This document shows positions 2,451-21,921 of a stretch of DNA of 50,822 bases, piece after piece. The stretch covers positions 1 to 50,822 of IMG/VR virus record IMGVR_UViG_3300026302_000105. One strand, 5' to 3'. Origin of the DNA: a virus. Its lineage: Duplodnaviria; Caudoviricetes. The notes below the pieces were generated by a model, which had not been told where the DNA came from, did not search any database, and worked only from the letters and a program-made list of their open reading frames with translations. How positions within the stretch are numbered: position 1 is the stretch's first letter; every line of letters begins with the position of its first letter. The translations under genes were made by a program, and so were the position numbers.

Positions 2451-3002
2451 TCACGGCAAACCCCGAATGCAGATCGCATGCTCGCGCTGGCGGCGCGGGA
2501 AGAGGATCCGCGCGCGCACCCCGGCGCGGGTCCACCAGGTCAGCGCCTCGCAGGCCCCGCGCACGTCGCCTGCATTGAGGCGGCGCACCGCGGTCGATCC
2601 CGAGACGGCGCCGATCCCGATGTTGTAGGTCAGCGACGAGAACGCGACATCGACCCAGACGGTGAGCGACAGATAGCCGGTCTCGGTCAAGCTGTTGCGG
2701 AAGCCCTGCCAGTAGCGCTGCGCCTCGCGCCGCAGGTCAGCGCGGCACTCGGCCCTGGTCCGCACGTCGCCCATGCGCACCCCCACGGTGATGCCCGAGC
2801 AGATCGTCGGCACCGGCGGGCTGGCGATGCGGTCAAGATAGGCCTCGCAGCGGTCACCGTTGCAGGGCAGGCCCTCTTCCTGCTCCAGGAGCGGCACCAG
2901 GTGGGTCGCGGTCTCGGGCCAGGTCGGCGCCCCGTTCTGGGGCGGGACGGGCGCGGCGGCGGTGCAGATCGCGAAGACCGCGCAGAGGATGGACTGGATC
3001 AT
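2451..3002 (-). CDS. Endolysin, GH24 lysozyme with N-terminal hydrophobic signal/SAR segment
   Basis: EEG...AYLD...PTICSG, SLTYNIG, STAVRRLNAG, ACEALTWW, RRQRE motifs; ATGA coupling with the holin. Confidence 0.92.
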   Translation of the reverse strand: MIQSILCAVFAICTAAAPVPPQNGAPTWPETATHLVPLLEQEEGLPCNGDRCEAYLDRIASPPVPTICSGITVGVRMGDVRTRAECRADLRREAQRYWQGFRNSLTETGYLSLTVWVDVAFSSLTYNIGIGAVSGSTAVRRLNAGDVRGACEALTWWTRAGVRARILFPRRQREHAICIRGLP

Positions 3003-3214
3003 CCCGACACCTTGGGCTGCTTGACCAGCCGACCAAGGGGGCCGTAGACGAAGAGGATGTTCGCCAGCGCGAAGAAGACCCACGGCGCCACGGGGTCATA
3101 GCCCAGCAAGCGATACAGCAGCTCGGGCGCCCATAGGGCGATCATGCCCAGGTAGAAAGCCCGCATCGAGTGCGAGCGAAGCGCCACCTGGCGCCAGTTG
3201 TCGACCAGTTTCAT
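2999..3214 (-). CDS. Putative holin
   Basis: 71 aa, two TM segments, MKLVDNWR...RLVKQ pattern; directly upstream of lysozyme. Confidence 0.75.
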   Translation of the reverse strand: MKLVDNWRQVALRSHSMRAFYLGMIALWAPELLYRLLGYDPVAPWVFFALANILFVYGPLGRLVKQPKVSG

Positions 3215-7448: not shown

Positions 7449-7670
7449 CTACTCGCTCGGCGCTACCGCGACGGGGCCGCTCGCGCTCCACCGCCAGAGG
7501 TGGCGGCCTTCACGATCATCGGGCAGATCGTCGTCTTCGATCGGTCGCCAGTTCGCACCGGGCGGCACGGTCTTCAGGGCTAGCTCCTCGAGCGTTGCGC
7601 CCCAGGACGGCGCGGGGATTACGACGGCAACACCGCCGCCCGGGGTTTCGTAAAGGATCTTGCCGGCCAT
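7449..7670 (-). CDS. Tail-fibre-associated small protein (assembly chaperone-like)
   Basis: GGVAVVIPA...VPPG...DLPDDREGRHLW pattern; directly after a fibre gene. Confidence 0.65.
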   Translation of the reverse strand: MAGKILYETPGGGVAVVIPAPSWGATLEELALKTVPPGANWRPIEDDDLPDDREGRHLWRWSASGPVAVAPSE

Positions 7671-7674
7671 TGGA

Positions 7675-8367
7675 TTACCTGTGGATGGAGATCGACACGT
7701 CGGGGGAGTCGAAGAGGTTGGTGGCGCTGGCGCCCTTCATCGTGGCGACATCGAGCTGGGATGCTGTCTTGGTCTGGCCCCCGATCTGCGAAACCGTGGT
7801 TCTGGTGTTGGTTGCCGTATCGTCGCTGAGGCAGTTCCCATTCCAGGCATAGTTGGCGTCTTCCATCGCGGTCTCGAAGGTGATCTGGTAGAGGCCTGTG
7901 CCAAGGTCGGTCAGGGCGGCCACGTTGCCAGACGCCTTGATCGCGGCCGTTCCCGTTCCGTCGAAGACCACCCACGCCCGGCAGGCGTAGAGTGGGGCGG
8001 ACCCGACGACATTGAGCTTGTCGTCGAGCTTCGCCTCCAGCTTCGAAGGAGAAATCGTTGCTTCGTCCGTGCCGGTTCCGGCGTCCCAGTCCTCTTGATC
8101 GAGTGCCAGGGCGGCGATCACGGCATCAGCATCGACGGAGGTACGTGCGAGCTTGACGCCCCCGGCGGTCTCTTCGTCTGGATCAACGGCATCGGCCGCG
8201 ACCACCTTGTACCCGATGCCCTCGGCCAAGACGAAGACCACATCGTCAACCGCGACCTGGCGCGCTGCGTCTGCGGCGTAGCCCAGCCCTTCATCCGCCT
8301 CCAGAAGCGCCTGCGTGTCGAAGAAGAGGCCGAGCATCGCGCTCGTGACCTTGGTGAGACCTGCCAT
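7675..8367 (-). CDS. Short tail fibre protein
   Basis: C-terminal CRAWVVFDGTG...SGNV..LTDLGTGLYQITF...DANY, a fibre-tip-type motif. Confidence 0.7.
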   Translation of the reverse strand: MAGLTKVTSAMLGLFFDTQALLEADEGLGYAADAARQVAVDDVVFVLAEGIGYKVVAADAVDPDEETAGGVKLARTSVDADAVIAALALDQEDWDAGTGTDEATISPSKLEAKLDDKLNVVGSAPLYACRAWVVFDGTGTAAIKASGNVAALTDLGTGLYQITFETAMEDANYAWNGNCLSDDTATNTRTTVSQIGGQTKTASQLDVATMKGASATNLFDSPDVSISIHR

Positions 8368-8388
8368 TGCTTTCCCCTTGGCTTAGGC

Positions 8389-8416
8389 GCCGCGCAGCCA
8401 ATTCCGGCAGCGCGGC
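8389..8416 (-). terminator. GC-rich hairpin after 8431..9333
   Basis: GCCGCGCAGCC-N6-GGCAGCGCGGC (1 mismatch); poor U-tract. Confidence 0.45.
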
Positions 8417-8430
8417 TGGGCTTGCTCGCG

Positions 8431-9333
8431 TCAGCCGGCGAACTGAGCGACACCGCGGAACGACCGCGACGGCAGCAGGCACATCAGCTTGATCGGCGTG
8501 GAGCCGTTGGGGTTCGCGTTCGGCGCATAGGTTCCGCGCACATCCCCGGTCGTCGCCGTTGCCACCGCCGTTGCGCCCGCCACGAAGGTGCCGTTCGTCA
8601 CGACAGCGCCGTTGACCACCTCCTTGATGATAGCGCCAGCCGGAGCATAGGCGGGAAGGCCGAAGACCTTGGAGTTGCCCACGGTAAGCCCGGTGACATC
8701 GGCCGAGACCGAGATCCCGGTGATAGTCTTGAACGCCTTGGCGCCGGTCATCGAGGTTCCCGAGCCCGAGCTTTCGACCATGGTCTCGCCGAACTCATCG
8801 GTTCCCGTCACGGTCAGCACCGCGGTCCCGGTCCAGGCGGCGACCACGTTGCGGGGTACATCGAAGGTCGCCACCCCATCCTCGGCGAGGGCCCCGTTGA
8901 TGCCGGTCTCGAGGCCGCCAGCAGCCGTGGCGGCCTGCGAGGCGACAGCGCCATCCGAATCCGAGGTCACCGGCGACCCCAGATCGATCATGACCGGGAA
9001 CAGGTCCGACATCGCGGCGTCGTTGGCGAGGTTGTCGGCGTCGAGCATGGCGCCGCTGCGATCGAGCTCGATCCAGATGATCGCGCCAGCGGGGAAAGAA
9101 GTCTGCGAGTTGTTCGTGATCGAGACGGTCGAGGCGAGATCCTTGACGGTGATCTCGTTGCGTTCCGCCTCCAGCGCGCGCGCCTCGCGGGACGTGATCC
9201 GATGCTTGGTGCCGCCGCCATAGCTGCCGGGCCCGCGGCCCGACGGATAGGCGATGGCAAGCGTACCACCTGCCGCCCAGGCCGAAACCAGGGTGTGCTG
9301 GATCGAGTCGATGGTGTCGTTGACCTTGGTCAT
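8431..9333 (-). CDS. Virion structural protein (decoration/head-fibre-like)
   Basis: Start MTKVND with AGGAG RBS; Thr/Gly/Ala-rich beta protein; has its own promoter motif and downstream hairpin. Confidence 0.65.
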   Translation of the reverse strand: MTKVNDTIDSIQHTLVSAWAAGGTLAIAYPSGRGPGSYGGGTKHRITSREARALEAERNEITVKDLASTVSITNNSQTSFPAGAIIWIELDRSGAMLDADNLANDAAMSDLFPVMIDLGSPVTSDSDGAVASQAATAAGGLETGINGALAEDGVATFDVPRNVVAAWTGTAVLTVTGTDEFGETMVESSGSGTSMTGAKAFKTITGISVSADVTGLTVGNSKVFGLPAYAPAGAIIKEVVNGAVVTNGTFVAGATAVATATTGDVRGTYAPNANPNGSTPIKLMCLLPSRSFRGVAQFAG

Positions 9334-9379
9334 ACCTGTCTCCTGAGAAAGGGCAGGCACAGCGCCCGCATCCAGTGGC

Positions 9380-9414
9380 AGAATGCGGCGCCCGCGGTTC
9401 ATCGTGCGGCGAAA
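9380..9414 (-). promoter_or_regulatory. Putative late promoter B
   Basis: TTTCGCCGCACG-N17-CATTCT, intergenic. Confidence 0.7.
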
Positions 9415-9525
9415 CTAGGGAACTGGCGGGTGCATGGCGGCAGAATCATTGACTCTACCCGGGCTCAGCCCGTTGATCAGGGCCAGGTACCGTTCACTGC
9501 TCTCTTTGAGGTAAGGACCCCAGTC

Positions 9526-10251
9526 TTGTCACTATTCATGACGCTCGATTGTCCGCATTGCTTCGCTCGCACTGCGTCCTTTTCAATAAGAAGTGTCCAC
9601 CTTCTTTCATCAAAGAATATACAAAACATCTACTCAAATGAAATCGAAGTCCATGGAGTTTGCCGCTCCTGCAACCATTCAGTCGTGGCGGGATTTTCCT
9701 ACGTAACGGGATACCAGTTCAGGGCTGACCACCTTCGAGGCGATATCACAAAAGGCTTTAGCGGGAGCGCTATTGGAGGACTTGATCTAAGAGCCAAGAA
9801 GATCTGGCAAGCACCTGAGATCCCAAAATCAGAATTGCCTGACCATCTTCCCGAGAACGTGGTCCGGCCATTAATCGAAGCTGAAACAGCGTTTTCTCAC
9901 GGGCTTTGGGGCGCCGCTGCAGCAAGCTACCGGAAAACGGTCGAGCGCGCCGTCACGCCGCTGATCGACGGCGACACAAATCGAAAAGAGCTGGGCAAAA
10001 AGCTGGGAATGCTAGAGAAGCAGGGGACTCTTCCCGAAGCCATGCTCGAGTGGATTCGCGTCGTCAAAGACCAGGGGAATTTCGCGCTTCACGACAATGA
10101 CTATGACTTTGATGCGAAGGATCAGATCGAGCCTGCTCGGGAGTTCACTATCACCCTGCTCACCTATCTCTTTACCCTTCCAGAGAAGGTGCGCCTCGCG
10201 CGCGCGCTGCCGGAGCCGGAGCAAGACGCTACGGCACCGGAGGGTGCATAG
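9526..10251 (+). CDS. DUF4145 (HEPN-like) protein with N-terminal Zn ribbon; moron
   Basis: CPHC/CRSC motifs; LPENV..PLIEAE...AAASYRKTVE...GNFALH. Visibly lower GC, antisense to late genes. Start is TTG 9526 (AAGGA RBS) or ATG 9538. Confidence 0.85.
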   Translation: MSLFMTLDCPHCFARTASFSIRSVHLLSSKNIQNIYSNEIEVHGVCRSCNHSVVAGFSYVTGYQFRADHLRGDITKGFSGSAIGGLDLRAKKIWQAPEIPKSELPDHLPENVVRPLIEAETAFSHGLWGAAAASYRKTVERAVTPLIDGDTNRKELGKKLGMLEKQGTLPEAMLEWIRVVKDQGNFALHDNDYDFDAKDQIEPAREFTITLLTYLFTLPEKVRLARALPEPEQDATAPEGA

Positions 10252-13200
10252 TCGCAATATTCGCGGCGCGTTGCTGGACCGAGGCGGCGCGCGCCCGGCG
10301 CTGAACCGCTTCAATCTGGAGGCGGATCTCATTGGCTCGTTGCACCCGCTCCGCGCGCGGCAGGTCACCGTTGACCACGGCTGTCAGCTCAGCGCGCAGG
10401 TCGCTCAGCGCTCCATCAGCCAGATCGAGCGGCCGAATGATGCTCTGGCGCCAATCCAGCTGACCGTTGCGCCGGACACCGACATTCATCTCGCCGCTGA
10501 TCTCGTCCCACACCTCCCGAGCCGCTGCATTTTCAGGGTCGGCCTGCAAATCGCTCCACGCCTGGCGCGCCCTGTTCTTCATCTCGGTCAGCTCCTCGCG
10601 CAGATCATAATAGAGGGTCTGCTCCGGGAAGCTGCTGGTCTCCGAGGTGAACGCGCGCGCGATCGGGATGTTGCGCCTTTCCGTCGGCGTGCCGGTGGCC
10701 ATGTCGAGCACTGCACCACCGACCTGCTGCGCGAAGATACCGGTCCCGCCGGTGACGAAGCGATAGAGGTAATCGAGGTGCCCGGGATAAAGGTCGATCC
10801 GGCCAGGGGTATAGGCGTCACCACCAGAGACACGGTTCAGGAACTGCGCAATCTCGACCGCACCGCGAGTGTTGCTGCGCTCAAAGAACTGCGAGGAGCG
10901 CGGCAGGCCCTCGGCGGCGCCGTACCTGTCATCCGGGACGATAGGGGTGTCCATGAAGTTGCGGTTCAGGCGCATGTCGACCAGCGGATCAAGGATCGTC
11001 GGCGTGACCATGTTCTCCCATTGGCCGTCCGCCAGGGGGTTCCACGACATCATGCCGGCGCTGCCGACGTTGCGGATCACCTCCTCGGGCGTGCGACGCC
11101 CCATTGCGGCCAGCATGAGCTCCGAGCCAAGGGCGAGGAACGGGCGCAGAGGGTAGGCCATCCGCCAGTTGACGGTGGTGAGGCGCTGGCGCGTTTGAGG
11201 GCGACCGTCCGGCATAATTACGGTCTCCGTCACGGTCCCGGTCGGAATGATGATGTTGCGGTGCCGGTCGTATTGCGACAGCCGCTCATAGAGCAGGATG
11301 CCCTCGGGATCATCATCGTCCCCCGCCAGCGCGCCCAACAGCGTCTGAAGCGCGCCCAGCACGATGACCGCGGGGAAGGCGACCGCCCAGTTGCGCGGGC
11401 GCTTCGCGAACCGGCCCAGCTTCTCGAGCGACTGGATCGCGGGGTTGATGAAGGCATAGGCCGCCCGTAGCGTCGGCGTGGCGGCTCCGCGACGATAGTA
11501 GTTGGTGGTGGCATCCTGAGCGAGCGCAGCCGCCTTCTCGCGGCTCAGGCCTTGCTCGCGCGCCGCCACATACATCGCCAGTCGCGACGCGCTCTCGATC
11601 GGCTGGTTCAGCTTCGAGATCGCGGTGATCATCGCCTCGCCGGCCGCGGCCATCGCATCACCGGCGGCCGAGGCCTTGGCTTTCAGGCCTGGTGTCGAGC
11701 GACCCGCGCGGCGCGTCATGCGGTCAATGTCGCGCGCAACATCATCCATGTCGCGGAGCGCGACGAAGTTGATCTTGCCCCCGTCGAGCTTCCATTCCTC
11801 GATATACTGCTGCATCCGGCGCTGCTGGGCTGGGCTGACATTCTGGCGCCGCATGATGCGCTGCCGCATCCAGTCAACCGCATCGCCGAACTCGTCGCGG
11901 AAGGCCTCGGTCAGCGCGGGCATGTAGGCCTTGGCATAGGCGGCGGCCATGCCTTTCTTGTCCACGTTGTGCGCGGTCCAGAGCCCTTCGATCAGGTCGG
12001 ACTGCAGGTTCGGCACCGTGAAGTTCGGGTTGAGAGCGGTGGACGTGGCCGCGACCATGCGGGTGACCGCGCCGACGGACACCTGAAAGGATCGCGCGAT
12101 GCGCTCCATGAGCTTGCGCGGATCGTCACCGCCAAGACGGTTCAGGGCGTCCAGAAGATAGGCGTCCTCAATCCGCAGATACACCTTGTCGCCGCCGACC
12201 TTGACCGCCATCGCGTGCCGCGGATCGACATAGCCGAAGTCGACGACATCGCTGACCATCCCGGTCTTGGGGTCCAGCACCTTGCGCGTCGGCAGCTTGC
12301 CGACCACCTCCCAGAGACCGGGTGCCGGATAGGCCTGCACCAGGTTCATCAGCGTCTTTGCCACCCGGTTCTTCTCGGCGCGAACGATGCCTTCCTGCCG
12401 CATGGTGATGATCTGGCTGATTGGATCATCGGCAATTGAAGTCCGCCCCAAGGCGCTTCGCACCTCTTTGCCGCGCATGTCGAAGCCGTTGCCGAGGCGG
12501 CCGATCTGCTCGCCATCATCGCGTTCGGCGAAGCCGCGGAGGGGAACATAGTTCTGATACATGCCGCGCCAGCTCTGGTACTGCTGATCGCTGATCAGAC
12601 CGGCGTTGCGGCGCAGAAGCAGGTCATCGTCCAGCATCTTGCGCAGGCGCTTGGCCAGCGCCTCAAGGGCCGGGACCTTGCCTTGTGCCTGAAGGTCGGC
12701 CAGCAGCGCCTGGGCGGCGCTGTCATGGATGCCGGAGCCGCCACCGGCGGCAAATCGCTGCGGATCGCGCTTCTGCATGACCGCGTTGCGCTCGGGGGCG
12801 TGCTTGGCAACCATGTAGACCCACAGGTCCTCGCGGCTGATGCCGGCCTGCTTCGATGCGCGCTTCATCGCGTCGAAGAAATCCTTCACCTCCCCTTGAA
12901 ACAGGCGCTCCAGTCGCTCCGCAACGCGGGCCGGGAACAGGCTTTGCCGCTGCGAGGCATTCAGCCTGTCCGTCAGCGGCTGTCCGGTCGCTGCCTCGAT
13001 TTCCGCCTGGGCGGCGCGCAGGTAGAGAAACTGGTCCTGGAACGCCTCGCGCACCGCCATGCCGAGACCCCGCTTCGGCAGCGTCCACGACATCGGCAGC
13101 GGCGGCTGGTGGAAGCCTGCCGGCGGGCCGAACTGCGCGTTGGCGCGCTGGATGCGCTCGATTGCAGTCTCCGGCACGCTGGTGTGTGCCGAGGGCTGGC

Positions 13201-16200
13201 CGATTGCCGGGTTGGTCTGCTGGCGGCGGAGGATGGTTGGGATGCGGCTGAACTGCGCTGCGCCCTGACCGCCACCACGCACTTGCCCACGCGCGCCCAC
13301 CTCACCCGCGAGGATCGCGTCGAACACCGACTGAGCATCCCTGAACCCGGCGCCGCGCAGGGCATTGCCGAGGGCCTTGAGGAACCGGCTGATCTGGTTG
13401 AAGGCCCGGGCCAAAACTGGTGTGCGGGGCGCATGCTTGGCGATCCAGGCCTCGGAAAACTCGGCGGCAATGGCCTCCTCGATCTGGCTGATCGGATCGA
13501 GGTCGCGGTAGAGCTCGCGGATGTTGTGCTTGTCCATCCAGGACGCCGCCGCCTCGGCTTCGAGCGCCCGCCATTCCTTCTCGCTGAACAGGCCATATTC
13601 CCGGCCCCAGAGCGCGGGATCGCGAAGCATATGGATCGCCTCGTGGTGCATGGTCGACATGCTGCCCTCGGTCGAATCCAGAGCGACCTGAACCAGTCCC
13701 ATGAGGTAGGAGCCGTCGACCGGCACCACGTTGCCGTCGGCATCGGTGCCCAGGAGGCGATCCACGACACGAAGGCGGATCTCTTCAGGCAGGCCCAGCC
13801 GCTTCCATGCCTGTTGCAGGGCCGTGCCCATGGCGCGGCGCTTCATGTCGAGCTGATCAGCGCTGAAGCTGGAGCGGCGGTAGCGCTCTTCGGCGCGGGA
13901 GAACTTCGGCTCCGCCACCGGATGCGACGGTTCGCTCAAATCAAGCGGCGCCTGCGTCTCCCCGTCCAGCGTCAGGGTGCCGGTGAACGGCTCGACCTGC
14001 GCCAGATCGACGTCGCCAAGATCGTAGGTCAGGGTGATGTGCGGCTGATAGGACGGGAAATCCCACGACGCCCCGGCATCGCGGTATTTCTGCCAGTCCT
14101 CTTGCAGACGGCGCGCGCTGGCGCCGGTGATTGGCAGGACAATGGCTCCTTCGTCGCCCAGTCTCTTGGGTTGCCCGAAATCGGATACCGTGACCGGGCT
14201 GTCGGAGGTGGGCGCCGCGACAGGATCACGGGAAAAAGCCGTGGTGACGTGCAGATCGTCCGCTGCGAGGAGGTTGGTGAAGCCTTGGGCTTTGGCCCAT
14301 TCGACGAGCGCGCCAGGGTTGCTGACGGCGCGGGAGGCATAGAGCGGCGCCGCCTCGGCCTGCGCCTGGATCGGATCCCGGTCGGTCTCTTCGGCCGCGG
14401 CGGTGACGGGCGCGGCGACCAAGACCGGCCCCGCCCGCATGTCGCGCGCCTCGGGTTCGGTGCGGTGCGTCCGGGGCCGTTCGTTGGGCGCATCCACCCA
14501 AGCGCCATCCTTCCGCGAGACGGCCTGCACCGTCGCCGTCCACTCGCCATTCGTGCCGCGGTCGAAGCTGATGACGCGATCATGGCCTCCGCCATAGGTG
14601 CGGACGATGTTACCCGGTGCGAAGTACTCCGCCAGGCGGTCAAGCTGCGCCTCACGTTCGCGCTGCGCCTTGGTGGTGCGCTGTTTCGGCGATGGGGCAG
14701 GCCGCGCCGCCGGCGCATCGAGCAAGTCGCCCTGCGTGTCGAACAACGGCCCGGCGTCGCCCTCATTACCGCCAAGGCGCCGCATCTTGCTCTGCTGCTG
14801 GCGCGCGGCGATCTCGGCGCGCTGACGGTCGCTGACCTGCTGACGCGCCTGGGTGTCGCTGATCTCGGCACCGGGGATGACGGCCTGATCGCCCGCGGCG
14901 GTGCGGTCGGTTACACCCCGATCGGCTGGTTGGGCGCCGGAATCACCGCGCTCATCCCGCCCGCCTTCGCGTTGTCGATCATCTTCTGCAGGTTGTCCCG
15001 ATGCCGCTCGATCGTCGCCCGGCTCTCCGGCGACAGGTTCGCCGCGCTGAGCGAGCGGTTCATCTCCGAAAGGGACTTCTCCCATTTCGGGAGATTGCGG
15101 CTCATCGGCAGCGTTTTCATCGGTGACAGCCTCCTGATAGCTGCGAACAGCCTGGTCGTGCACGGCGTCGTCAATCGAGCCGCCTTCGCGGTTCAGCCGA
15201 TCCACGATAGCGCTGCGCTCGCCTTCGGTCCAGCTTCCACCGATCTCGCCCAGCTTGCGGTCAACTTCCTTCGCAATCCGGTTGATGCGGCGCTGGTTCC
15301 CGCTTGAATCAGCATCGGGCGGCATCACGCGCCGACCGTCAGCCCCCTCGTCGATGGTCTCGTTCAGACCGCGGGCCCGCCGGTCGCGCGCCTCTTGCTC
15401 CATCCGCCGCGCCTCACGCGCGCCATAGCTCACATCGAATGGCGTTCCCGCGGCCTCGCCCGCCAGTGCTTCGATGATCGCCTCACGGTTGGCATAACGC
15501 CCGGTTCCGTCGGTCCCAAGCAGCTGCGCGGCGTCAGTGCCCAGCGTGGCTGGGTCGATGTTGTCGAGATCCGTGGCGCCACCCGGCTTGAACAGGCGGG
15601 GATGCGTTTGCGGTGTGACGCCGCGCGCCGCAAGCTCGCTCGCGGCCCAGCTGGGAACGGTTGCTCCGTTCTGCTGGATCGTCGGCGCGATGCCTCCTTG
15701 GCTCGCGATCTTTGCCATGAGCGGCTGGCGATAACGCAACTCAGGGAACTGCTGCCGAGGCGCCTGCGCATTGCGAGGTGCATATTTCGGCGCCACTTTC
15801 GGCAATTCGGCGCGCCGATCGGCCTCGCGGGCCGCCTCTTCCGCCCTGGCGCGCTGGTTGACCTGAGCCAAGTGCTCACCAATCGGGACGGCCTCATACC
15901 GATCATCTCGCAGGTTTTCGATCTGCGCGCGGCTCGAGGTCTCCATGATGGCCTCGCCGGTTTCCCGGTCTCGGATTACCCAGCTGGCGGGCTCTCGTGC
16001 TGGATCGGCAAAGGAGCCGGGCGCGCTACGCTCGGGCTGCCCAGCCGCAGGCTGATCAACCCGCCCCACAACGGGCTGGGCCTGCGGCTGAACCGGGGCT
16101 GCTGCCTGCCCCACGTCACCTGCTTGCGCGGCAACGGCATCGGTGGCCGCCGGGGCGGCCTGTTCCTCGATCGGCGAAATCACGATGTCGCCGTCTTCGA

Positions 16201-18325
16201 TGTCCTGGCGCGGGAGAACGCTCTCGGTCCCGTCGGCCTCGCGGATGCGGATGCCGTCGGGGTCTTCCCCAAGCACCTCAACCGGGAACGGTTGCTGACC
16301 GCCGATGGATACCCCCATTCGTGCGCGCGCTGCTGCGGCCGGTGGCGGCGCAACCGCTGCACGGCCAGGAGGCAGCGGCGCAGTCGCGACCGCCTGAGGT
16401 TCGGCCGGGACGGGTGCCACGTCCGGCACCTGCCGAGGCACACCGGGGACATAGGGCCGGATGCCGGTGATCTCGGCGCCGCGCTGCACGTCCTCGGGGC
16501 TCGGCTCTTCGCGGGGCGCCCTGACCGGTGCCTCGACCTGCGACCCCATGGCCTGAGCAAGCGCGCCGGTGCCAGCGCCGAGGATGCCGCCGATCAGCGC
16601 CGACTCCGTGACGCCATCCGACCAGCCGCGCTCGGGGTCGTAATACCCTTGCGCGATCAGGTTGTTTAGCGCCTGCGAAGCCGCCTCCTGCGCGGCCTCC
16701 TCGCCCGCGTTTAGAGCGATCTCCCCGAACCGGCGGAACATCGTGCCCGCCACCCTGTCGCGGATGCCCGACGGCAGGAAGCGGAACGCGCGCCCGATCG
16801 GGATCACCTCGCTGGAACCGACCAGCGCGCCCCAACCGGCAGCCGAAAGCGCATCGTCCTGACTGGCGCCAGCCTGAAGCGCTTCCTCGTAGACCTGCCC
16901 GGAATTGCTGGCCGCGCCAATACCGCCGGTGGCGACGATTGCACCACCCGGGCCGCCAAGCGCGCCACCGGCCAGCGCCGCCCCGAGGAAGGCCGACATG
17001 GACCCGGCGCCCTGGGCAAGCGATGCCCAGAAGGACGGATCATCGGGCGGCGTCCCGAAGGTGTCGGCAAACCTGGCGCGCAGGCCCTCCGCAGCCCCAC
17101 GGAAATCCACAGGCTCCTGCTGGCCAGCGACGGCCTGCTGGCCGGCCGCAATGCCGGAAAGACGCTCCTGCCCCACCTGCATATCGGCGATTCGCTGAGC
17201 AAGGATTGCCCGCTCTTCATCGCGAAGGGATGGATCGGCGAGACGCTGCTGCATTTCCATGATGGTGCGCGCGCGCTCTTCCTGTAGACCGGTCGCAGCC
17301 TCACGAGTTCCGGCGCTGGCCGGCGTGTCGGCCAAGGATGCCGCTGTCTGCAACGCATCGAGGCCCATGAGCGACGACACCAGCATCTCGTTGGCGCCCA
17401 GGCCGAACTGCTGGGCCCGACGCTGCAGGAGCGCCCCAATGCCCTCCCCGGCGAAGGGATCCGCCGCCGCGGCCCGTTGCTCCTCGACGCCGCGCATGAC
17501 GCCCTCGACGTACTCGGGCTGCATGGTGCGGGCTTCCAGCGCACGGATCTCCTCGGAGACGCGCGCGATGTCGGCCTCGATCTCGGGCCGCTGCTGTTCC
17601 GAAGCAGATGCGAGCTCAGCCTCGAGGTTCCTCAGCGTGCCCCGGGCACGCTCCATCATTCCCGCATCATAGGTGATCGGCGTGCGCGGGATCGGCGCGG
17701 TGCTGCCCATGGGCGCGGCGCCCGTCTCATGCCGGTAATCGCTCGGCGCCTGGAATTCACCGGACCAGAGGCCGAGACGGGCCGCCTCTGCCGCTTGGGC
17801 CTCACGCGAATACTGCTCGCCCATGTAAGGCAGCGCAGCCCCCGCGCCGACCATGCGGCGATTGAGGTCGGTGGTGCCTGACATCAGCGTGCCCAGGAGG
17901 CGCTGATAGCGATCGGTCCCGCTGAACTCCGGCTGCGATGGGTTCGCCTCCATCAGGCGCGTGAGCATGTCGGTCGACCACTGGCCCGCGGGCCACTCGC
18001 CGTCCGCACGCTGACCGGTCTGCGAGCTTTCCGGCGCGTCGATGCCGGTCATCCGCATCGAGCCCTCGGATGTTCTCACCGTGTCGCCGTCGATTGGCGC
18101 CGGCTGCACGGCAGGCGCTGCCGGGGGCGGCGTGTAAATCGAGGCAGGGCGCGGCTGCGGGCTCGGAGCGGCCGCCGCTGGATCCAGCCCGAGCGCCCGG
18201 TAAACCTCGCCGCGCGGTCGCTCCGCATAGAAGCGCTGATGCAGGGCATCGGCGAGGTCGTTGTCCGACATCTCGCCATACTGAGGATACCGCGCCCGGA
18301 TGTCCGCGATAGTGATGGTGGACAT
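10229..18325 (-). CDS. Giant ejection-type polyvalent protein: SNase + Acb1-like 2H phosphodiesterase + HExxH peptidase + LPD38
   Basis: 2698 aa, last of three ejection-position genes. DGDT/GIDAPE/DRYQR; LHVT/PHIT; HHEAIH; C-terminal LPD38-like NRNFMDTPIVP...PGHLDYL..FVTGG. Confidence 0.85.
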   Translation of the reverse strand: MSTITIADIRARYPQYGEMSDNDLADALHQRFYAERPRGEVYRALGLDPAAAAPSPQPRPASIYTPPPAAPAVQPAPIDGDTVRTSEGSMRMTGIDAPESSQTGQRADGEWPAGQWSTDMLTRLMEANPSQPEFSGTDRYQRLLGTLMSGTTDLNRRMVGAGAALPYMGEQYSREAQAAEAARLGLWSGEFQAPSDYRHETGAAPMGSTAPIPRTPITYDAGMMERARGTLRNLEAELASASEQQRPEIEADIARVSEEIRALEARTMQPEYVEGVMRGVEEQRAAAADPFAGEGIGALLQRRAQQFGLGANEMLVSSLMGLDALQTAASLADTPASAGTREAATGLQEERARTIMEMQQRLADPSLRDEERAILAQRIADMQVGQERLSGIAAGQQAVAGQQEPVDFRGAAEGLRARFADTFGTPPDDPSFWASLAQGAGSMSAFLGAALAGGALGGPGGAIVATGGIGAASNSGQVYEEALQAGASQDDALSAAGWGALVGSSEVIPIGRAFRFLPSGIRDRVAGTMFRRFGEIALNAGEEAAQEAASQALNNLIAQGYYDPERGWSDGVTESALIGGILGAGTGALAQAMGSQVEAPVRAPREEPSPEDVQRGAEITGIRPYVPGVPRQVPDVAPVPAEPQAVATAPLPPGRAAVAPPPAAAARARMGVSIGGQQPFPVEVLGEDPDGIRIREADGTESVLPRQDIEDGDIVISPIEEQAAPAATDAVAAQAGDVGQAAAPVQPQAQPVVGRVDQPAAGQPERSAPGSFADPAREPASWVIRDRETGEAIMETSSRAQIENLRDDRYEAVPIGEHLAQVNQRARAEEAAREADRRAELPKVAPKYAPRNAQAPRQQFPELRYRQPLMAKIASQGGIAPTIQQNGATVPSWAASELAARGVTPQTHPRLFKPGGATDLDNIDPATLGTDAAQLLGTDGTGRYANREAIIEALAGEAAGTPFDVSYGAREARRMEQEARDRRARGLNETIDEGADGRRVMPPDADSSGNQRRINRIAKEVDRKLGEIGGSWTEGERSAIVDRLNREGGSIDDAVHDQAVRSYQEAVTDENAADEPQSPEMGEVPFGDEPLAQRGEPVAGEPGDDRAASGQPAEDDRQREGGRDERGDSGAQPADRGVTDRTAAGDQAVIPGAEISDTQARQQVSDRQRAEIAARQQQSKMRRLGGNEGDAGPLFDTQGDLLDAPAARPAPSPKQRTTKAQREREAQLDRLAEYFAPGNIVRTYGGGHDRVISFDRGTNGEWTATVQAVSRKDGAWVDAPNERPRTHRTEPEARDMRAGPVLVAAPVTAAAEETDRDPIQAQAEAAPLYASRAVSNPGALVEWAKAQGFTNLLAADDLHVTTAFSRDPVAAPTSDSPVTVSDFGQPKRLGDEGAIVLPITGASARRLQEDWQKYRDAGASWDFPSYQPHITLTYDLGDVDLAQVEPFTGTLTLDGETQAPLDLSEPSHPVAEPKFSRAEERYRRSSFSADQLDMKRRAMGTALQQAWKRLGLPEEIRLRVVDRLLGTDADGNVVPVDGSYLMGLVQVALDSTEGSMSTMHHEAIHMLRDPALWGREYGLFSEKEWRALEAEAAASWMDKHNIRELYRDLDPISQIEEAIAAEFSEAWIAKHAPRTPVLARAFNQISRFLKALGNALRGAGFRDAQSVFDAILAGEVGARGQVRGGGQGAAQFSRIPTILRRQQTNPAIGQPSAHTSVPETAIERIQRANAQFGPPAGFHQPPLPMSWTLPKRGLGMAVREAFQDQFLYLRAAQAEIEAATGQPLTDRLNASQRQSLFPARVAERLERLFQGEVKDFFDAMKRASKQAGISREDLWVYMVAKHAPERNAVMQKRDPQRFAAGGGSGIHDSAAQALLADLQAQGKVPALEALAKRLRKMLDDDLLLRRNAGLISDQQYQSWRGMYQNYVPLRGFAERDDGEQIGRLGNGFDMRGKEVRSALGRTSIADDPISQIITMRQEGIVRAEKNRVAKTLMNLVQAYPAPGLWEVVGKLPTRKVLDPKTGMVSDVVDFGYVDPRHAMAVKVGGDKVYLRIEDAYLLDALNRLGGDDPRKLMERIARSFQVSVGAVTRMVAATSTALNPNFTVPNLQSDLIEGLWTAHNVDKKGMAAAYAKAYMPALTEAFRDEFGDAVDWMRQRIMRRQNVSPAQQRRMQQYIEEWKLDGGKINFVALRDMDDVARDIDRMTRRAGRSTPGLKAKASAAGDAMAAAGEAMITAISKLNQPIESASRLAMYVAAREQGLSREKAAALAQDATTNYYRRGAATPTLRAAYAFINPAIQSLEKLGRFAKRPRNWAVAFPAVIVLGALQTLLGALAGDDDDPEGILLYERLSQYDRHRNIIIPTGTVTETVIMPDGRPQTRQRLTTVNWRMAYPLRPFLALGSELMLAAMGRRTPEEVIRNVGSAGMMSWNPLADGQWENMVTPTILDPLVDMRLNRNFMDTPIVPDDRYGAAEGLPRSSQFFERSNTRGAVEIAQFLNRVSGGDAYTPGRIDLYPGHLDYLYRFVTGGTGIFAQQVGGAVLDMATGTPTERRNIPIARAFTSETSSFPEQTLYYDLREELTEMKNRARQAWSDLQADPENAAAREVWDEISGEMNVGVRRNGQLDWRQSIIRPLDLADGALSDLRAELTAVVNGDLPRAERVQRANEIRLQIEAVQRRARAASVQQRAANIATMHPPVP

Positions 18326-18985: not shown

Positions 18986-20052
18986 CAGTGTACCCCCTCG
19001 CCGCGCATCTCACGCTCCATCACCTCGATCCGTCGCAGTGCCGATTGCAGGGCGCCGGCGAGAAGCCCGAGGTAGTCGATCACGTTGATGGTGCGGCCGT
19101 CGCCCAGCCCGGTGATGTCGCGGAAATGCTCGGCCATCGGGCCGATGTGTTGCTCGCCATGATCGCCGGCCGGCCGGTTGCTGTCGCGATAGCGCCACAC
19201 CGCCAGCGGCATCCTGCTCAGGGCTTCGGCTGCCCATGCGTCGCGCAGAGGGCCATCGATTTCCTTCGCCTCCATCGTGCATTTCAGAAGCATGCTTGCG
19301 CCGAGGCCACCCAGAGTGCTGGCGGTGTTCATTCTCTGCGCCTGCTGCGCCTGATACTGGGCCATTTCGTTCTGGTACTGCTGGCCGACCAGCCCCGAAT
19401 AATTCACGCTGGCCATGCTGCCCGACGGCATTGCATTCGGGGGGTTGTAGCCGCCGCCCATCGCCGCGGCGATCTCGGACATGGCGTTCTGGCGCAGGGC
19501 CGCGTCCAGCCCGAATTGCCGCGATTGCTCCTGGCCGGACGCGATGTCGGCATCCATGGCCAGCCGCGAGATCGTGTCCTGGGTTTGCTTGAGCTGCTCA
19601 CCATAGGCGTCATTGAAGCCCTCGGCCCCGACCGGGATACCGCGGGCCTGCAGGTTCGTCAGCAGGCGCTCGTTTGCCTTGTCGATCCCGGGAGACATCA
19701 TGGAGAACGCCCGGTCGAAGATCGACTGCGCGACATCACCCCGGTCTTGGACCTGCAAGCCCTGCGACAGAGTGCCCATGGACTGATCCAGCACGGTCCG
19801 CCCGAGGTCAATCGATGCGGGCTCGAACATCTGGCGCAGCGCCTGCTCGAACGGGCTCTCCACGTATTTCTGTGCGGCCTGCGCGCCCTGCGGAGCGACG
19901 CCCTGCACGAACTGCCCGGTAATGGGGTCCGTATAGCCGTTCAGGATCGACGAGCCGCCGGCGGAATAGATGTCCGGCCGGTTGAATTGCGCCTCGGCTG
20001 AGGCGGTTTCATACGGGTCCGGCGCTTCCGGTGCGTTGCTGCCCTTGCCCAT
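18985..20052 (-). CDS. Ejection/pilot protein with C-terminal peptidase S74-like chaperone domain
   Basis: MGKGS.APEAPDPYETA N-terminus, Gln-rich body, then WRY...HIGPMAEHF...IDYLG. Confidence 0.75.
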   Translation of the reverse strand: MGKGSNAPEAPDPYETASAEAQFNRPDIYSAGGSSILNGYTDPITGQFVQGVAPQGAQAAQKYVESPFEQALRQMFEPASIDLGRTVLDQSMGTLSQGLQVQDRGDVAQSIFDRAFSMMSPGIDKANERLLTNLQARGIPVGAEGFNDAYGEQLKQTQDTISRLAMDADIASGQEQSRQFGLDAALRQNAMSEIAAAMGGGYNPPNAMPSGSMASVNYSGLVGQQYQNEMAQYQAQQAQRMNTASTLGGLGASMLLKCTMEAKEIDGPLRDAWAAEALSRMPLAVWRYRDSNRPAGDHGEQHIGPMAEHFRDITGLGDGRTINVIDYLGLLAGALQSALRRIEVMEREMRGEGVH

Positions 20053-20473
20053 CGCTGATCCACCTGCATTCGTCTCTGAACATCTTCAGGACTAGCAGCG
20101 GGCCGCCGTCATGTGCGGCGAATGCCACGATCGCCTCCCCCTTGAACCCCAGCTTGGTCGCGAGATTGAGGGACGGAAGGTTGCTGCCAGGCACGGTCAC
20201 CGAAATCGCGTGACAGCCCAGCTGGATGAACGGAAAGGCGAAGAGCTTGAAAAGAGCGCTCCTGCTGGCCCATCCGCTGCCCGGCTCGGCAGCGATCGAC
20301 ACCTCGCAATGGACGCCGTTGAAGCGCTCATACATCACCCCGGCGACCAGTCCCGTCCCGCGGACGACACCAAGCGCCTTGGCGCCATCGCTGATCGACA
20401 TGCCGGGTATTCTCTTGGCGACCCACCTGCTGACCAGATGGTCGGCGCCATAGAGTACGTCGTCGACCAGCAT
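20009..20473 (-). CDS. GNAT-family N-acetyltransferase-like protein
   Basis: LVAGVMY...FPFIQLGC...N.PSLNLATKLGFKGE; TGATG coupling to the upstream gene. Confidence 0.8.
   Translation of the reverse strand: MLVDDVLYGADHLVSRWVAKRIPGMSISDGAKALGVVRGTGLVAGVMYERFNGVHCEVSIAAEPGSGWASRSALFKLFAFPFIQLGCHAISVTVPGSNLPSLNLATKLGFKGEAIVAFAAHDGGPLLVLKMFRDECRWISDGQGQQRTGSAGPV
20089..20123 (-). promoter_or_regulatory. Possible late promoter D (degenerate)
   Basis: ATTCGCCGCACA-N17-TAGTCC, 60 bp upstream of the pilot gene, inside the GNAT CDS. Confidence 0.4.
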
Positions 20474-21921
20474 CAAAGCACCCCGGCGCGCAGGCTGGTC
20501 AGCTCGCACCATTCCGCTGAAAGCTCGATGATCAGCTTGAAGGTCTCGCCCACCGCATCGACGGGAATCAGGTCATCCAGCGCGAAGAGTTGCCCGCGAC
20601 CGCGATGCGTCTCCAGAACCACCGTCTGTTTCGCCTCTCGAATATCGCGCGGGGTTTCCTGGTGATCGCTCAGCACGGTGATGCTGACGGTGACCTCGGA
20701 CGCCGCCGTCATCCCAATCTTTAGGAAGGTGATCCCGGTGGCGCGCGGCATCCTGAACCAGCCTGTCACCAAGCGGGCCGCGATCAGGTCGCCCTCCTTC
20801 GCCTGAACCACCCGGCAAAGTCGGCCATCATCGGCGGTGAACTCGGTGGCCGTCCCGAGGTTGTGCCAGGCAACGGCCGGGAAGTCAGCCTTCGCCCATG
20901 AGCCATCCTTGGGCCGGAATATGAACTGCTCGATCGTCTCCGCGATCCTGTTCACCACCACCATTGATCCGTCGTCGGCAGTGTGCATCTGCCAGCGCGC
21001 AGGCGTGGCGGCCATCTCCGTCACCTCCTCGGAGATCGCGGCCGAGACTGCGCCGACCAGCGCCAGCACGCTCTGCCGGATGGAATCGGAGAGCGAGATC
21101 ACCCCGGAGGCCGTGAACATCCAGAGATCGGCGCCCACCTGGGTGAAGGCCTCGCCGCCGAGAGGAGCGGCTGCGTTCACGCGGGTCAGAAGGCGCCAGT
21201 CGTTCGGATCGCCAGGATCCAGTCCCTCATAGGCCACTATCACGCCGGTGGTGGTGATAACCGCCAGCGTGTCGTTCATGCCGTGCCCGGCGTCGATCGT
21301 CATGCTGCGCAGGGCCGACAGCGAGCCGGTGATGTTGCCCAGCCGGCCCAGTGGAAACCTGATCCAGTTGCCGGATACTGCGCCCACCGTCTCGGGGTAG
21401 TAGAAATCGAGCGTCCCGCCCCGCACCCAGAACAGGAGCCGGTCCTGGTGCGCGATCACGCCGCTGAAGGTTGCCGGATTGACGCCCGCGATCTCGATCG
21501 ACATCTGCGTGAAGGCCGTCCCATCGAAGCGCACGGGCAAGCCTAGGCCATCAGCGATGATGGCGTTCCCGCTGATATAGGCGACATCGCAGGTGGCGGA
21601 ACTGGCGCGGGTGATGCTGGCCTCGCCGCACACCAGCCGGTCGGCGTGGACCTCGATGTAGCGCGTCTCGGAACCGAACTCGAACGGAATGCGCCGCAAG
21701 ACGGTCGAGGGCGCGGAAAGGGCCTGCACCTGGCGGCGCAACCGAAGCGATGAACCTGTGCTTTCCCAATTCAGGAACTCCCCTGCATAGATGCCGCTCA
21801 CCTCTGAGGTCTTGGCCTCGGTGTAGAGCCCCTTCAGCGGCAGCGGGATCGGGATCTCGCGCGCGAGCGCCCCGCCCGAGGCCCTTGTTGCCGCTCTCGC
21901 TCTCGCCCACTTCATGTTCAC
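20473..21921 (-). CDS. Tail hub/nozzle (P22 gp10-like head-closure) protein
   Basis: ~480 aa, beta-propeller-like composition; between adaptor and ejection genes. Confidence 0.65.
   Translation of the reverse strand: MNMKWARARAATRASGGALAREIPIPLPLKGLYTEAKTSEVSGIYAGEFLNWESTGSSLRLRRQVQALSAPSTVLRRIPFEFGSETRYIEVHADRLVCGEASITRASSATCDVAYISGNAIIADGLGLPVRFDGTAFTQMSIEIAGVNPATFSGVIAHQDRLLFWVRGGTLDFYYPETVGAVSGNWIRFPLGRLGNITGSLSALRSMTIDAGHGMNDTLAVITTTGVIVAYEGLDPGDPNDWRLLTRVNAAAPLGGEAFTQVGADLWMFTASGVISLSDSIRQSVLALVGAVSAAISEEVTEMAATPARWQMHTADDGSMVVVNRIAETIEQFIFRPKDGSWAKADFPAVAWHNLGTATEFTADDGRLCRVVQAKEGDLIAARLVTGWFRMPRATGITFLKIGMTAASEVTVSITVLSDHQETPRDIREAKQTVVLETHRGRGQLFALDDLIPVDAVGETFKLIIELSAEWCELTSLRAGVL

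Follow-up and report, generated by a model that had tools for sequence, protein, structure and literature searches.

The polyvalent proteins of phages are thought to be the first strike of the phage on its host, and their domain lists reveal the targets. Among those of the LPD38 type, gp47 of phi24B (LPD5, LPD1, LPD38 and MuF-C) was identified by proteomics of virions and has been suggested to be an ejection protein, and gp69 of Burkholderia phage JC1 is described as carrying an LT-like domain at aa 80-192. The 2017 survey of polyvalent proteins (PMC5512222) names ParB-type DNases alone among their DNases and already lists the 2H phosphoesterase as phage-type, predicted to counter nucleotide signalling. 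The terms SNase, staphylococcal nuclease and thermonuclease have 0 occurrences in its main text; its Table S1 and File S2 (131 domains) could list the domain. For T7 gp16 (internal virion protein D), the N-terminal transglycosylase is placed in the periplasm and the C-terminal part in the cytoplasm (PMC8954989), and the word 'nuclease' is absent from that podovirus review.

The window analysed here is the whole stretch of 50,822 nucleotides of virus DNA. The carrier phage is a temperate, podovirus-like prophage in a marine-type bacterium, with a CI-like repressor (HTH and S24) at 40903-41568. The features of its giant gene, with the evidence for each, are listed below.

10229..18325, minus strand: whole gene of a 2698-aa LPD38-type polyvalent protein, a presumed ejection protein (ORF list, Pfam, PHROGs)
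18152..18325, minus strand: conserved N-terminal leader, aa 1-58 (local jackhmmer)
18095..18151, minus strand: Pro/Ala-rich linker, aa 59-77 (read from the sequence; AF2 pLDDT lower at this end)
17732..18094, minus strand: SNase/thermonuclease domain, aa 78-198, 121 residues (Pfam, phmmer, AlphaFold2, Foldseek, alignment)
17471..17731, minus strand: linker and predicted helical stretch, aa 199-285 (aligns with relative P0035)
16490..17470, minus strand: all-helical module with Gly/Ala-rich hydrophobic segments, aa 286-612 (conserved in relatives, AF2)
13934..14344, minus strand: Acb1-like 2H phosphoesterase, aa 1328-1464 (Pfam PF23474)
13631..13645, minus strand: HExxH motif of a presumed zincin-like processing peptidase, aa 1561-1565 (motif scan)
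10253..13717, minus strand: conserved C-terminal body, aa 1537-2691 (identity, Kyte-Doolittle, Pfam)

The ATG of the 2698-aa frame is preceded, 9 nt to its 5' side, by the ribosome-binding site GGGAG, and LPD38 relatives align with the protein starting at residue 1. The giant gene is part of a virion or late gene block, all on the minus strand, in which it is preceded by the terminase, portal, major head, adaptor and tail genes and followed by the tail-fibre genes. No tape-measure protein was recognised among the genes of the phage. Pfam matched the protein to SNase, Acb1 and LPD38 (PF18857, 94.9 bits against a cut-off of 27), and PHROGs 10691 (E 9e-148), 14770 and 616 were matched as well. 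It is a phage-type LPD38 polyvalent protein with a C-terminal LPD38 and a conserved body, and several disparate activities (SNase, Acb1-like 2H and HExxH motif) are held on one chain. Like phi24B gp47 and JC1 gp69, it is a giant single polypeptide of the virion block with an LPD38 C-terminal body, an HExxH motif and enzymatic domains of several unrelated kinds.

The relatives of this protein numbered 146 at E<=1e-10; the counts below use the 120 listed, in which P0002 is the protein itself. The C-terminal body, with a TM-like helix at aa 2311-2338 (Kyte-Doolittle 2.08) and Pfam LPD38 at aa 2346-2555, shows 53-59% identity to P0003, P0004 and P0005 and 25-29% to Stx-phage, Ruegeria-phage and other phage proteins. 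In an alignment of 20 rows (A2), the H, E and H of the HExxH motif, together with an E farther downstream, hardly vary, and no Pfam peptidase family matched at the motif. The 2H domain claimed in the initial annotation was recovered by Pfam as Acb1 (PF23474, 101.9 bits against a cut-off of 27) with both HxT motifs, HVTT at aa 1359 and HITL at aa 1429, and a PDB sequence search returned Acb1 7t26 (E 3.4e-6).

The same annotation had claimed an intact SNase domain at the N-terminus. Its motifs IDGDT, MRMTGIDAPE, DRYQR, DLNRRMVGAGAA and ARLGLW are all present in the minus-strand translation of 17732-18094. The proposed Pfam check gave PF00565 at aa 90-188 (E 2.2e-11, 44.6 bits against a gathering score of 21), and the family scored 50.6 bits in a six-frame search of the genome. 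With phmmer, staphylococcal nuclease 1snd_A was matched in the PDB over almost the whole chain (E 2.5e-4), and 5217 matches at E<=0.001 were obtained from 1.84 billion representatives. The AlphaFold2 model of the domain (pLDDT 93.5, pTM 0.85) gave 301 Foldseek matches in the PDB at E<=0.001; the 50 listed matches, every one to staphylococcal nuclease, have a probability of 1.00 and a target-normalised TM of 0.65-0.75. The predicted structure, an OB-fold barrel plus three helices, superposes on that of staphylococcal nuclease. Residues 78-198 are a genuine SNase domain.

The claim that the metal-binding and catalytic motifs are intact also held, as all such columns are kept against the PDB and 81 homologues. 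In the alignment of these 81 nearest homologues (A1), D79, G80, R91, G94, P98, Q102 and R142 are each found in 81/81, D81, D96 and E99 each in 80/81 with all three kept in the query, and Y140 also falls on a (nearly) invariant column. Residues D79, D81, R91, D96, E99, Y140 and R142 align with D19, D21, R35, D40, E43, Y85 and R87 of staphylococcal nuclease, whose Ca2+ ligands we take to be D21, D40 and the T41 backbone, with R35, E43 and R87 as catalytic residues. T41 is replaced by Ala (A97) in the query, and Ala also occupies this position in 79/81 homologues. The domain is predicted from these columns to be catalytically competent. SNase-type enzymes are Ca2+-dependent, the canonical SNase requiring roughly millimolar Ca2+, and free Ca2+ in the cytoplasm is sub-micromolar. 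Gating by Ca2+ is not guaranteed, because at least one SNase homologue, Mycoplasma MAG_5040, is reported to be Mg2+-dependent.

The origin of the domain was traced through its nearest matches. The best 149 non-self matches of the 5217 are all proteins of 128-518 aa with 34-46% identity, and a hydrophobic N-terminus occurs in 71/81 of the nearest homologues. Four alignment columns hold Cys in 81, 81, 80 and 81 of the 81 rows. The nearest subfamily is that of the small, mostly exported, four-cysteine proteobacterial thermonucleases (PF00565; YncB-type), and the host's own 218-aa SNase enzyme is 38% identical to the phage domain. The fold, the metal ligands and the catalytic Arg/Glu/Arg are shared with these enzymes. 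Unlike them, the phage domain is internal to a 2698-aa protein, has no signal peptide or anchor, and carries G104, A113, P132 and L147 at the four Cys columns, so that it is devoid of Cys. Capture from such small exported thermonucleases, followed by building into the giant protein, would best explain these data. Among 401 genomes of the same family, matches to the SNase part were found in at least 192, and the other matches listed all lie in open frames of 161-615 aa; these counts are lower bounds, as a stricter first pass was used and 63 further matches exist beyond those listed. Among large proteins, only the protein itself matched aa 1-260. The entire 2698-aa chain has 0 Cys; in the LPD38 family 33 Cys occur in 393,509 residues, and 103/120 listed proteins have 0. 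Adaptation to a reducing cytoplasm fits the loss of the four cysteines equally well.

The surroundings of the domain were compared among the relatives. The leader is found at the N-terminus of 11/120 listed proteins by local jackhmmer, some of them without the helical module, and is 40-52% identical to that of P0003, P0005 and P0021. The helical module occurs in 20/120, its start lying always within aa 27-413. Its AF2 model is all-helical with pLDDT 68 and includes aa 270-285, the last 16 residues of the preceding linker stretch, which are helical there; no Pfam family was found for the module, and Foldseek against the PDB gave no fold match at E<=0.001. Its hydrophobic segments are aa 434-469, 492-510 and 571-595 (Kyte-Doolittle 1.1-1.45), the first of which (window positions 16919-17026, maximum 1.45) corresponds to the Gly/Ala hydrophobic segment claimed at about 16905-17000. 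In P0003 the leader (aa 1-72) is followed by the module (aa 134-426) with no domain in between, and in the giant protein the SNase occupies this gap. The SNase sits between a conserved leader and a module that close relatives join directly. The domain map also agrees with the claimed order of nuclease, hydrophobic module and 2H domain. No muralytic domain had been recognised in the protein, and the Pfam search likewise gave none. A survey of LPD38 homologues for domain swaps had been proposed, and it revealed SLT and M15 wall hydrolases in their N-terminal region. There are 5 such matches among the 120 listed relatives, all within the first 525 residues: SLT at aa 27-119, 29-127 and 449-524, and M15 at aa 402-464 and 327-399. 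Relative to the first hydrophobic segment, the wall hydrolase comes later in P0045, P0104 and P0115 and earlier in P0100 and P0117.

Other SNase-LPD38 fusions were also searched. The precomputed Pfam lists give PF00565 in 1/120 listed relatives, which is this protein, and a local SNase profile was positive in 2/120, P0002 and P0035; a further search yielded two more such proteins, P0271 and P0272. On this sequence comparison the fusion is rare but recurrent, with four proteins in two sequence-distinct groups. As in the giant protein, the SNase of P0035, P0271 and P0272 lies upstream of the conserved module region, directly so in P0035 and P0271, and its catalytic motifs are kept; in P0272 the module was not detected with the query used. 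In contrast to the giant protein, their SNase is shorter and lacks the first Cys loop, about 230 Pro/Ala-rich residues precede it in place of the leader, and the cargo differs: P0035 has ART and helicase-type domains, and P0272 has ART domains. All their cysteines (4 in P0035, 4 in P0271 and 2 in P0272) are inside the SNase domain. The SNase of P0035 is 29% identical to that of the giant protein over 83 residues and scores higher against 76 small nucleases than against the latter, which hints at two separate captures. With no more than four fusions of this kind from these searches, the arrangement may matter only marginally.

The new elements are the position of the SNase between leader and module, the loss of the four family cysteines, the rare but recurrent fusion and the wall-cutters in the same region of the sister proteins. 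Going by the 2017 survey, the SNase would represent a second DNase type in polyvalent proteins. By exchanging four Cys and retaining its catalytic residues, the domain offers a natural experiment on how a secreted enzyme with disulfide bonds can be re-engineered; a compact, cysteine-free, Ca2+-switchable nuclease may be obtained from it, though practical consequences are modest for now. The location in the wall-cutter region raises the possibility of a nuclease that works in the envelope and not in the cytoplasm.

Going by its homology to phi24B gp47, the giant protein probably travels in the capsid and is ejected through the tail together with the DNA. With the Stx-phage proteins it shares about 25% similarity, confined to aa 1697-2592. 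The likeness to T7 gp16 in the podovirus ejectosome model, with an N-terminal enzyme, hydrophobic or membrane segments and a large cytoplasm-bound part, is an analogy of architecture only; gp16 carries a transglycosylase and this protein a nuclease, and no gp16 homology was found: searched against PDB sequences, the full-length protein matched a portal protein and Acb1 only. The two enzymes may lie on opposite sides of the inner membrane, as had been suggested, but the hydrophobic segments are weak and the module model is of low confidence. A position upstream of the hydrophobic segment is also no fixed rule for the periplasm, because the wall hydrolases of the sisters are found on either side. 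The remark that a packaged nuclease would need control is a fair point, although precedent exists: DdrB-like ParB domains (phage P1 DdrB) are predicted DNases inside head-packaged giant proteins. They differ from the SNase in their unrelated fold and in their position after the hydrophobic module in relatives (about aa 620-1200), and are absent from the giant protein.

Taken together, these observations may be read as a captured SNase on an ejected LPD38 protein, predicted to be a delivered, Ca2+-gated nuclease acting in the envelope; we regard this joint reading as having an even chance of being right. The protein would be packed in the capsid and leave through the tail alongside the DNA. The SNase would then lie in the N-terminal, envelope-proximal region, where the sisters, and by analogy T7 gp16, hold peptidoglycan hydrolases, and the cytoplasm-type enzymes (Acb1-like phosphoesterase and HExxH peptidase) would follow downstream of the helical hydrophobic module. 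It would be silent in the low-Ca2+ cytoplasm of the producer cell and also in the head, where it would be stowed and probably not fully folded, and would be switched on upon refolding in the Ca2+-rich periplasm of the newly infected cell. The most plausible substrate may be foreign DNA caught in the periplasm, whether from superinfecting phages, gene-transfer agents or DNA uptake. This is the least certain step, and it is speculative because the periplasm normally holds little nucleic acid. We infer the packaging and ejection, the compartment, the Ca2+ gating and the substrate alike; should the HExxH peptidase cut the protein up, the freed SNase could go anywhere. An extended and rather unlikely form of the idea takes the N-terminal slot as a swappable 'envelope tool' position, from which, in a few phages, a Ca2+-switched nuclease in place of a wall hydrolase, planted in the periplasm by the first infecting phage, would destroy later-arriving DNA as a superinfection-exclusion weapon, its journey possible only after disulfide loss. 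Such loss before tail passage would fit a near-absolute no-cysteine rule, seen in the family counts, for proteins that have to thread through the tail. If true, this would be a virion-delivered superinfection exclusion against phages, gene-transfer-agent DNA and taken-up DNA.

An attack in the cytoplasm was also considered, in which the ejected SNase, perhaps freed by the HExxH peptidase, would cut the DNA or RNA of the host, or nucleic acids used in defence (guide RNAs, retron DNA), and replace the ddrB-ParB DNase. Iyer et al. 2017 (PMC5512222) regard those enzymes of polyvalent proteins that work on nucleic acids as effectors injected against host or parasite nucleic acids. The anti-signalling Acb1-like domain on the same chain is a cytoplasm-directed effector, and the cysteines of the exported relatives are lost, as expected when folding occurs in a reducing compartment. 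The ddrB-ParB domain is present in the three closest relatives P0003, P0004 and P0005 and in neither P0002 nor P0035; its absence from SNase bearers is uninformative, however, because it occurs in only 17/120 listed relatives. The SNase moreover lies in the wall-hydrolase region and not where relatives have ddrB-ParB (about aa 790-1200). The Ca2+ that the canonical enzyme needs is missing in the cytoplasm. A freely active cytoplasmic nuclease also fits badly with lysogeny because the phage is temperate, and a loose non-specific one would endanger the incoming genome as well, which leaves this explanation possible but doubtful.

A role after lysis, in which the giant protein freed at the burst would meet external Ca2+, digest viscous host DNA and free the virions with the fusion being incidental, is improbable. 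Gating by Ca2+, a property of the family, would hold the enzyme off until lysis, and the closest homologues are of the exported or extracellular type. A free small nuclease gene would nevertheless do the same job, and the insertion point is shared by the second SNase group and the cysteines are purged in a nearly Cys-free family; this recurrence and purge suggest a function tied to the carrier. A non-catalytic or relic domain, with an OB-fold that merely binds nucleic acid (such as the leading DNA end) or is a functionless passenger, is the least probable explanation and highly unlikely. Inactive SNase-like domains of the Tudor-SN type exist elsewhere, and purifying selection cannot be measured as no close relative is available. 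Against this, the metal-binding and catalytic columns are all retained although four near-invariant Cys are replaced, the pattern left by a domain that stayed functional during its adaptation, and the model is very confident (pLDDT 93.5). The SNase segment has a GC of 68.3 and a GC3 of 83.5, compared to 67.6 and 79.9 for the whole gene, so that its base composition is fully ameliorated and the SNase is not a recent passenger.

The identity of the SNase domain in the giant LPD38-type polyvalent protein (P0002, 2698 aa, ORF 10229-18325, minus strand) was analysed. The initial annotation had read staphylococcal-nuclease motifs at 17732-18094, and the minus-strand translation of this stretch was found to be stop-free and to give the 121 residues claimed, which form aa 78-198 of the 2698-aa ORF. 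The Pfam search agreed with this reading, PF00565 matching aa 90-188 with an E value of 2.2e-11 and a score of 44.6 bits (cut-off 21). Staphylococcal nuclease 1snd_A was matched by the SNase segment in a phmmer search of the PDB (E 2.5e-4). In this alignment D79, D81, R91, D96, A97, E99, Y140 and R142 fall on D19, D21, R35, D40, T41, E43, Y85 and R87, which are the Ca2+ ligands and catalytic residues of staphylococcal nuclease. The AlphaFold2 model of the domain, made from 82 rows, had a pLDDT of 93.5 and a pTM of 0.85; its Foldseek comparison with the PDB gave 301 matches at E<=0.001, and all 50 of those listed were staphylococcal nuclease. The SNase domain is real and looks competent for catalysis.

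The start of the giant gene is considered sound because GGGAG lies 9 nt upstream of it and because relatives align to the protein from their own residue 1. The protein corresponds to the 'phage-type polyvalent protein with LPD38' class of Iyer et al. 2017 (PMC5512222). The features along it are as follows.

18152-18325, minus strand: 58-aa leader
17732-18094, minus strand: SNase domain
13934-14344, minus strand: Acb1 domain, PF23474 (aa 1328-1464; Pfam, 101.9 bits)
13631-13645, minus strand: HExxH motif (aa 1561-1565; motif search)
11312-11395, minus strand: TM-like helix, KD 2.08 (aa 2311-2338; hydropathy), directly before LPD38
aa 2346-2555, minus strand: LPD38, PF18857 (Pfam)

The origin of the domain was investigated using aa 60-215 as query against 1.84 billion representatives. 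The phmmer search gave 5217 matches at E<=0.001, and the best 150 of these comprised the giant protein itself and 149 proteins of 128-518 aa with 34-46% identity. When 81 of the best-scoring small nucleases were aligned with the giant protein, the catalytic columns were invariant or nearly so and the giant protein agreed with them. Four further columns hold Cys in nearly every one of the 81 homologues (81, 81, 80 and 81 rows), and the giant protein has G104, A113, P132 and L147 at these places. A hydrophobic N-terminal stretch, like that of exported proteins, was present in 71 of the 81 homologues. The host genome also encodes an SNase-type nuclease of 218 aa (contig C1, locus L001, 1390-2046, plus strand) with a signal-peptide-like start and the same four Cys; this exported protein was ruled out as the donor because it is just 38% identical to the phage domain. 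A recent horizontal insertion was likewise unsupported, since the SNase segment, with a GC of 68.3 and a GC3 of 83.5, agrees with the whole gene (67.6 and 79.9), which argues that the insertion is old. Close relatives of the N-terminal 260 aa were sought among large proteins of 1483-4722 aa, and the giant protein alone was recovered. When 50,697 phage records were searched by tblastn with the SNase segment, two unannotated gut-metagenome contigs with 29-31% identity came up, neither of them informative.

The occurrence of the fusion among 120 listed LPD38 relatives was evaluated. In the precomputed Pfam lists PF00565 is assigned to one of the 120, which is the giant protein itself. The profile built from the small nucleases detected SNase in two of the 120, namely the giant protein and the relative P0035, where it occupies aa 235-314 directly upstream of the helical Gly/Ala-rich module; the single-sequence phmmer search of the SNase segment against the same proteins had overlooked P0035. 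Two more relatives were added by a search seeded with P0035 and confirmed by the profile: P0271, with an identical sequence in the region, and P0272, at 60% identity. The SNase-LPD38 fusion is rare, four proteins having been found. In a scan of 401 genomes from the same family, whose counts are lower bounds owing to a stricter first look, at least 192 had a match. Among the matches listed, those to the SNase part other than the giant protein's own were all in open frames of 161-615 aa, and the module was seen in at least one other of the 401 genomes, within a 2952-aa frame that lacks SNase.

For the SNase of P0035, 76 small nucleases scored better than the SNase of the giant protein, which stood at rank 77 of 153. 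This hints that the domain was captured twice and at the same place, the choice between one capture and two being drawn from this BLAST ranking only. In a tree of 70 small SNases and the two fused ones, the fused domains stood on long branches (2.13 and 6.87); strong support was seen on 2 of 69 inner branches, and the fused domains were not sisters, but without support.

The place of insertion was characterised by local profile searches of the leader and the module. The 58-aa leader was found in 11 of the 120 relatives, the sequences after it differing, and it may act as a signal for packaging or docking. The module (aa 286-612 of the giant protein) was found in 20 of the 120, its start always within residues 27-413. 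The relative P0003 has the leader at aa 1-72, a short Pro/Ala stretch and then the module at aa 134-426; in the giant protein the SNase and its linker occupy the place of this gap. Of the 19 other proteins with the module, 17 have a pre-module segment that, judged by eye, resembles a Pro/Ala-rich linker, and P0035 has an SNase there. In the relative P0010 this segment is only 27 residues long. The AlphaFold2 model of the module had a pLDDT of 68 and no Foldseek match in the PDB at E<=0.001, and its segments are only mildly hydrophobic (KD 1.1-1.45). The helix at aa 2311-2338 is the sole strongly hydrophobic TM-like helix of the giant protein, and a comparable peak precedes LPD38 in all eight relatives checked.

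The Cys content gave further insight into the fused domain. The giant protein has no Cys in its 2698 aa, while the other 16 structural ORFs counted have 33 in 6103 aa (chance of zero P ~4e-7). The 120 relatives together hold 33 Cys in 393,509 residues; 103 of them lack Cys altogether and 118 have at most two. The four Cys of P0035 and the two of P0272 are all inside the respective SNase domains. All eight Cys of the relative P0021 lie within aa 1819-2097, around a homing-endonuclease/LAGLIDADG match (aa 1972-2036), and this region is most likely a self-excising intein. CxC pairs occur in the relatives P0023, P0036, P0040 and P0073. The exceptions are thus grouped in add-on parts, that is the SNase, the presumed P0021 intein and the CxC pairs. 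As the SNase of the giant protein lacks Cys in a Cys-poor family and has kept its active site, it was not simply pasted in but adapted to a strong family-wide constraint. This constraint may reflect non-native passage through the tail, exposure to the oxidising envelope, or both.

The compartment in which the domain would act was considered from the position of other enzymes in the relatives. Five of the 120 have a wall-hydrolase Pfam match, which in no case extends beyond residue 525 (SLT at aa 27-119, 29-127 and 449-524; M15 at aa 402-464 and 327-399). An LT-like domain occupies aa 80-192 of Burkholderia phage JC1 gp69, and in T7 gp16 the N-terminal transglycosylase stays periplasmic and the C-terminal part gets to the cytoplasm (PMC8954989). 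The N-terminal region therefore seems to be the site of envelope-acting tools, and it is this region that the SNase of the giant protein occupies. A fixed order with the wall hydrolase before the hydrophobic segment was ruled out, since the hydrolase precedes the first hydrophobic segment in some relatives and follows it in others. The homologue phi24B gp47 has been detected in virions by proteomics, and the authors of that work suggest packing in the capsid followed by ejection.

Ca2+-gated action of the SNase on the envelope side is the preferred reading, because of the N-terminal position, the exported ancestry and the Ca2+ that the SNase family needs, and we would give it about an even chance. 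This reading is weakened by the mild hydrophobicity of the module segments, by the low confidence of the module model, by the variable place of the wall hydrolases and by the use of Mg2+ in some SNase homologues, as reported for Mycoplasma MAG_5040. The low Ca2+ of the cytoplasm would hold the enzyme off during synthesis and assembly. P1 DdrB, whose ParB-type domain is a predicted DNase, offers a precedent for packing a nuclease-type domain along with the genome. The SNase might instead be a cytoplasmic attack enzyme that replaces the ddrB-ParB DNase of relatives, which is present in P0003, P0004 and P0005 and absent from the giant protein; this is rather unlikely. A role in clearing DNA after lysis is improbable, and the least probable is that the SNase is a binding-only domain or a relic; the fused domain is well preserved and mechanistically suggestive, and its activity is a prediction from sequence.

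The Acb1-like region was noted separately as a 2H phosphoesterase of the anti-CBASS type inside a presumed injected protein. The 2H fold has kept its two HxT motifs, and Acb1 itself (7t26) is among the PDB matches of the giant protein. A further PDB match of the region is the solved Pam3 portal protein, in its C-terminal part (8hds_A aa 445-604, E 1e-9), so there is more than one case of this domain attached to a virion protein. Among the 120 relatives, the precomputed Pfam lists show PF23474 in the giant protein only. The HExxH motif and a downstream Glu are nearly invariant across 20 aligned relatives, and no Pfam peptidase model matches this region of the giant protein. The tblastn search with the giant protein against phage genomes gave 411 records, matched only at aa ~1543-2592 with 25-29% identity, and these include Stx-converting phages, Ruegeria phage 45A6 and phages of Vibrio, Pseudomonas, Ralstonia and Burkholderia. 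Named relatives came from Pseudooceanicola and Mameliella, which are marine Rhodobacteraceae.

The LPD38 polyvalent class and the 2H domain within it are already known (Iyer et al. 2017, PMC5512222); an SNase in the class was not found described. SNase is never named in the main text of that paper, and the word 'nuclease' does not occur in the podovirus ejection-protein review (PMC8954989). Among the papers listed in the literature search, none connects SNase or thermonuclease with polyvalent or ejection proteins, or a Cys-free state with ejection proteins.

The window corresponds to positions 360843-411664 of contig C3 in a 26-contig, 4.87-Mb genome. The genes around the giant gene are as follows.

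Upstream of the giant gene, minus strand, in order: small terminase, large terminase, portal, major head protein; then SU10-type adaptor, tail-collar protein, 482-aa PHROG 'amidase' member, GNAT-like protein; then virion structural protein, 215-aa protein
20009-21921, minus strand: the 482-aa PHROG 'amidase' (E 2e-65) and a 167-aa PHROG acyl-CoA N-acyltransferase (E 2e-39)
Downstream of the giant gene: tail-fibre genes
2451-3083, minus strand: phage lysozyme
37443-38159, minus strand: DNA methyltransferase
40903-41568, plus strand: CI-type repressor, HTH and peptidase S24
~9877-10114, in ORF 7660-10251, plus strand: DUF4145, PF13643 (Pfam, 29.4 bits vs 23.1)

No tape-measure protein was recognised among the virion genes, and the particle is therefore taken to be podovirus-like. 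The CI-type repressor and the lysozyme show that the element is a temperate prophage which brings its own enzyme for lysis. Neither the 482-aa 'amidase' protein nor the 167-aa acyltransferase has a Pfam match; the former may provide the wall-cutting activity that is absent from the giant protein. The search of the phage DNA for tRNA genes found none. The 826-bp gap (9403-10228) that separates the giant gene from its next neighbour on the minus strand has no minus-strand ORF longer than 51 aa, and the plus-strand DUF4145 frame is probably an opposite-strand accessory gene within the tail module.
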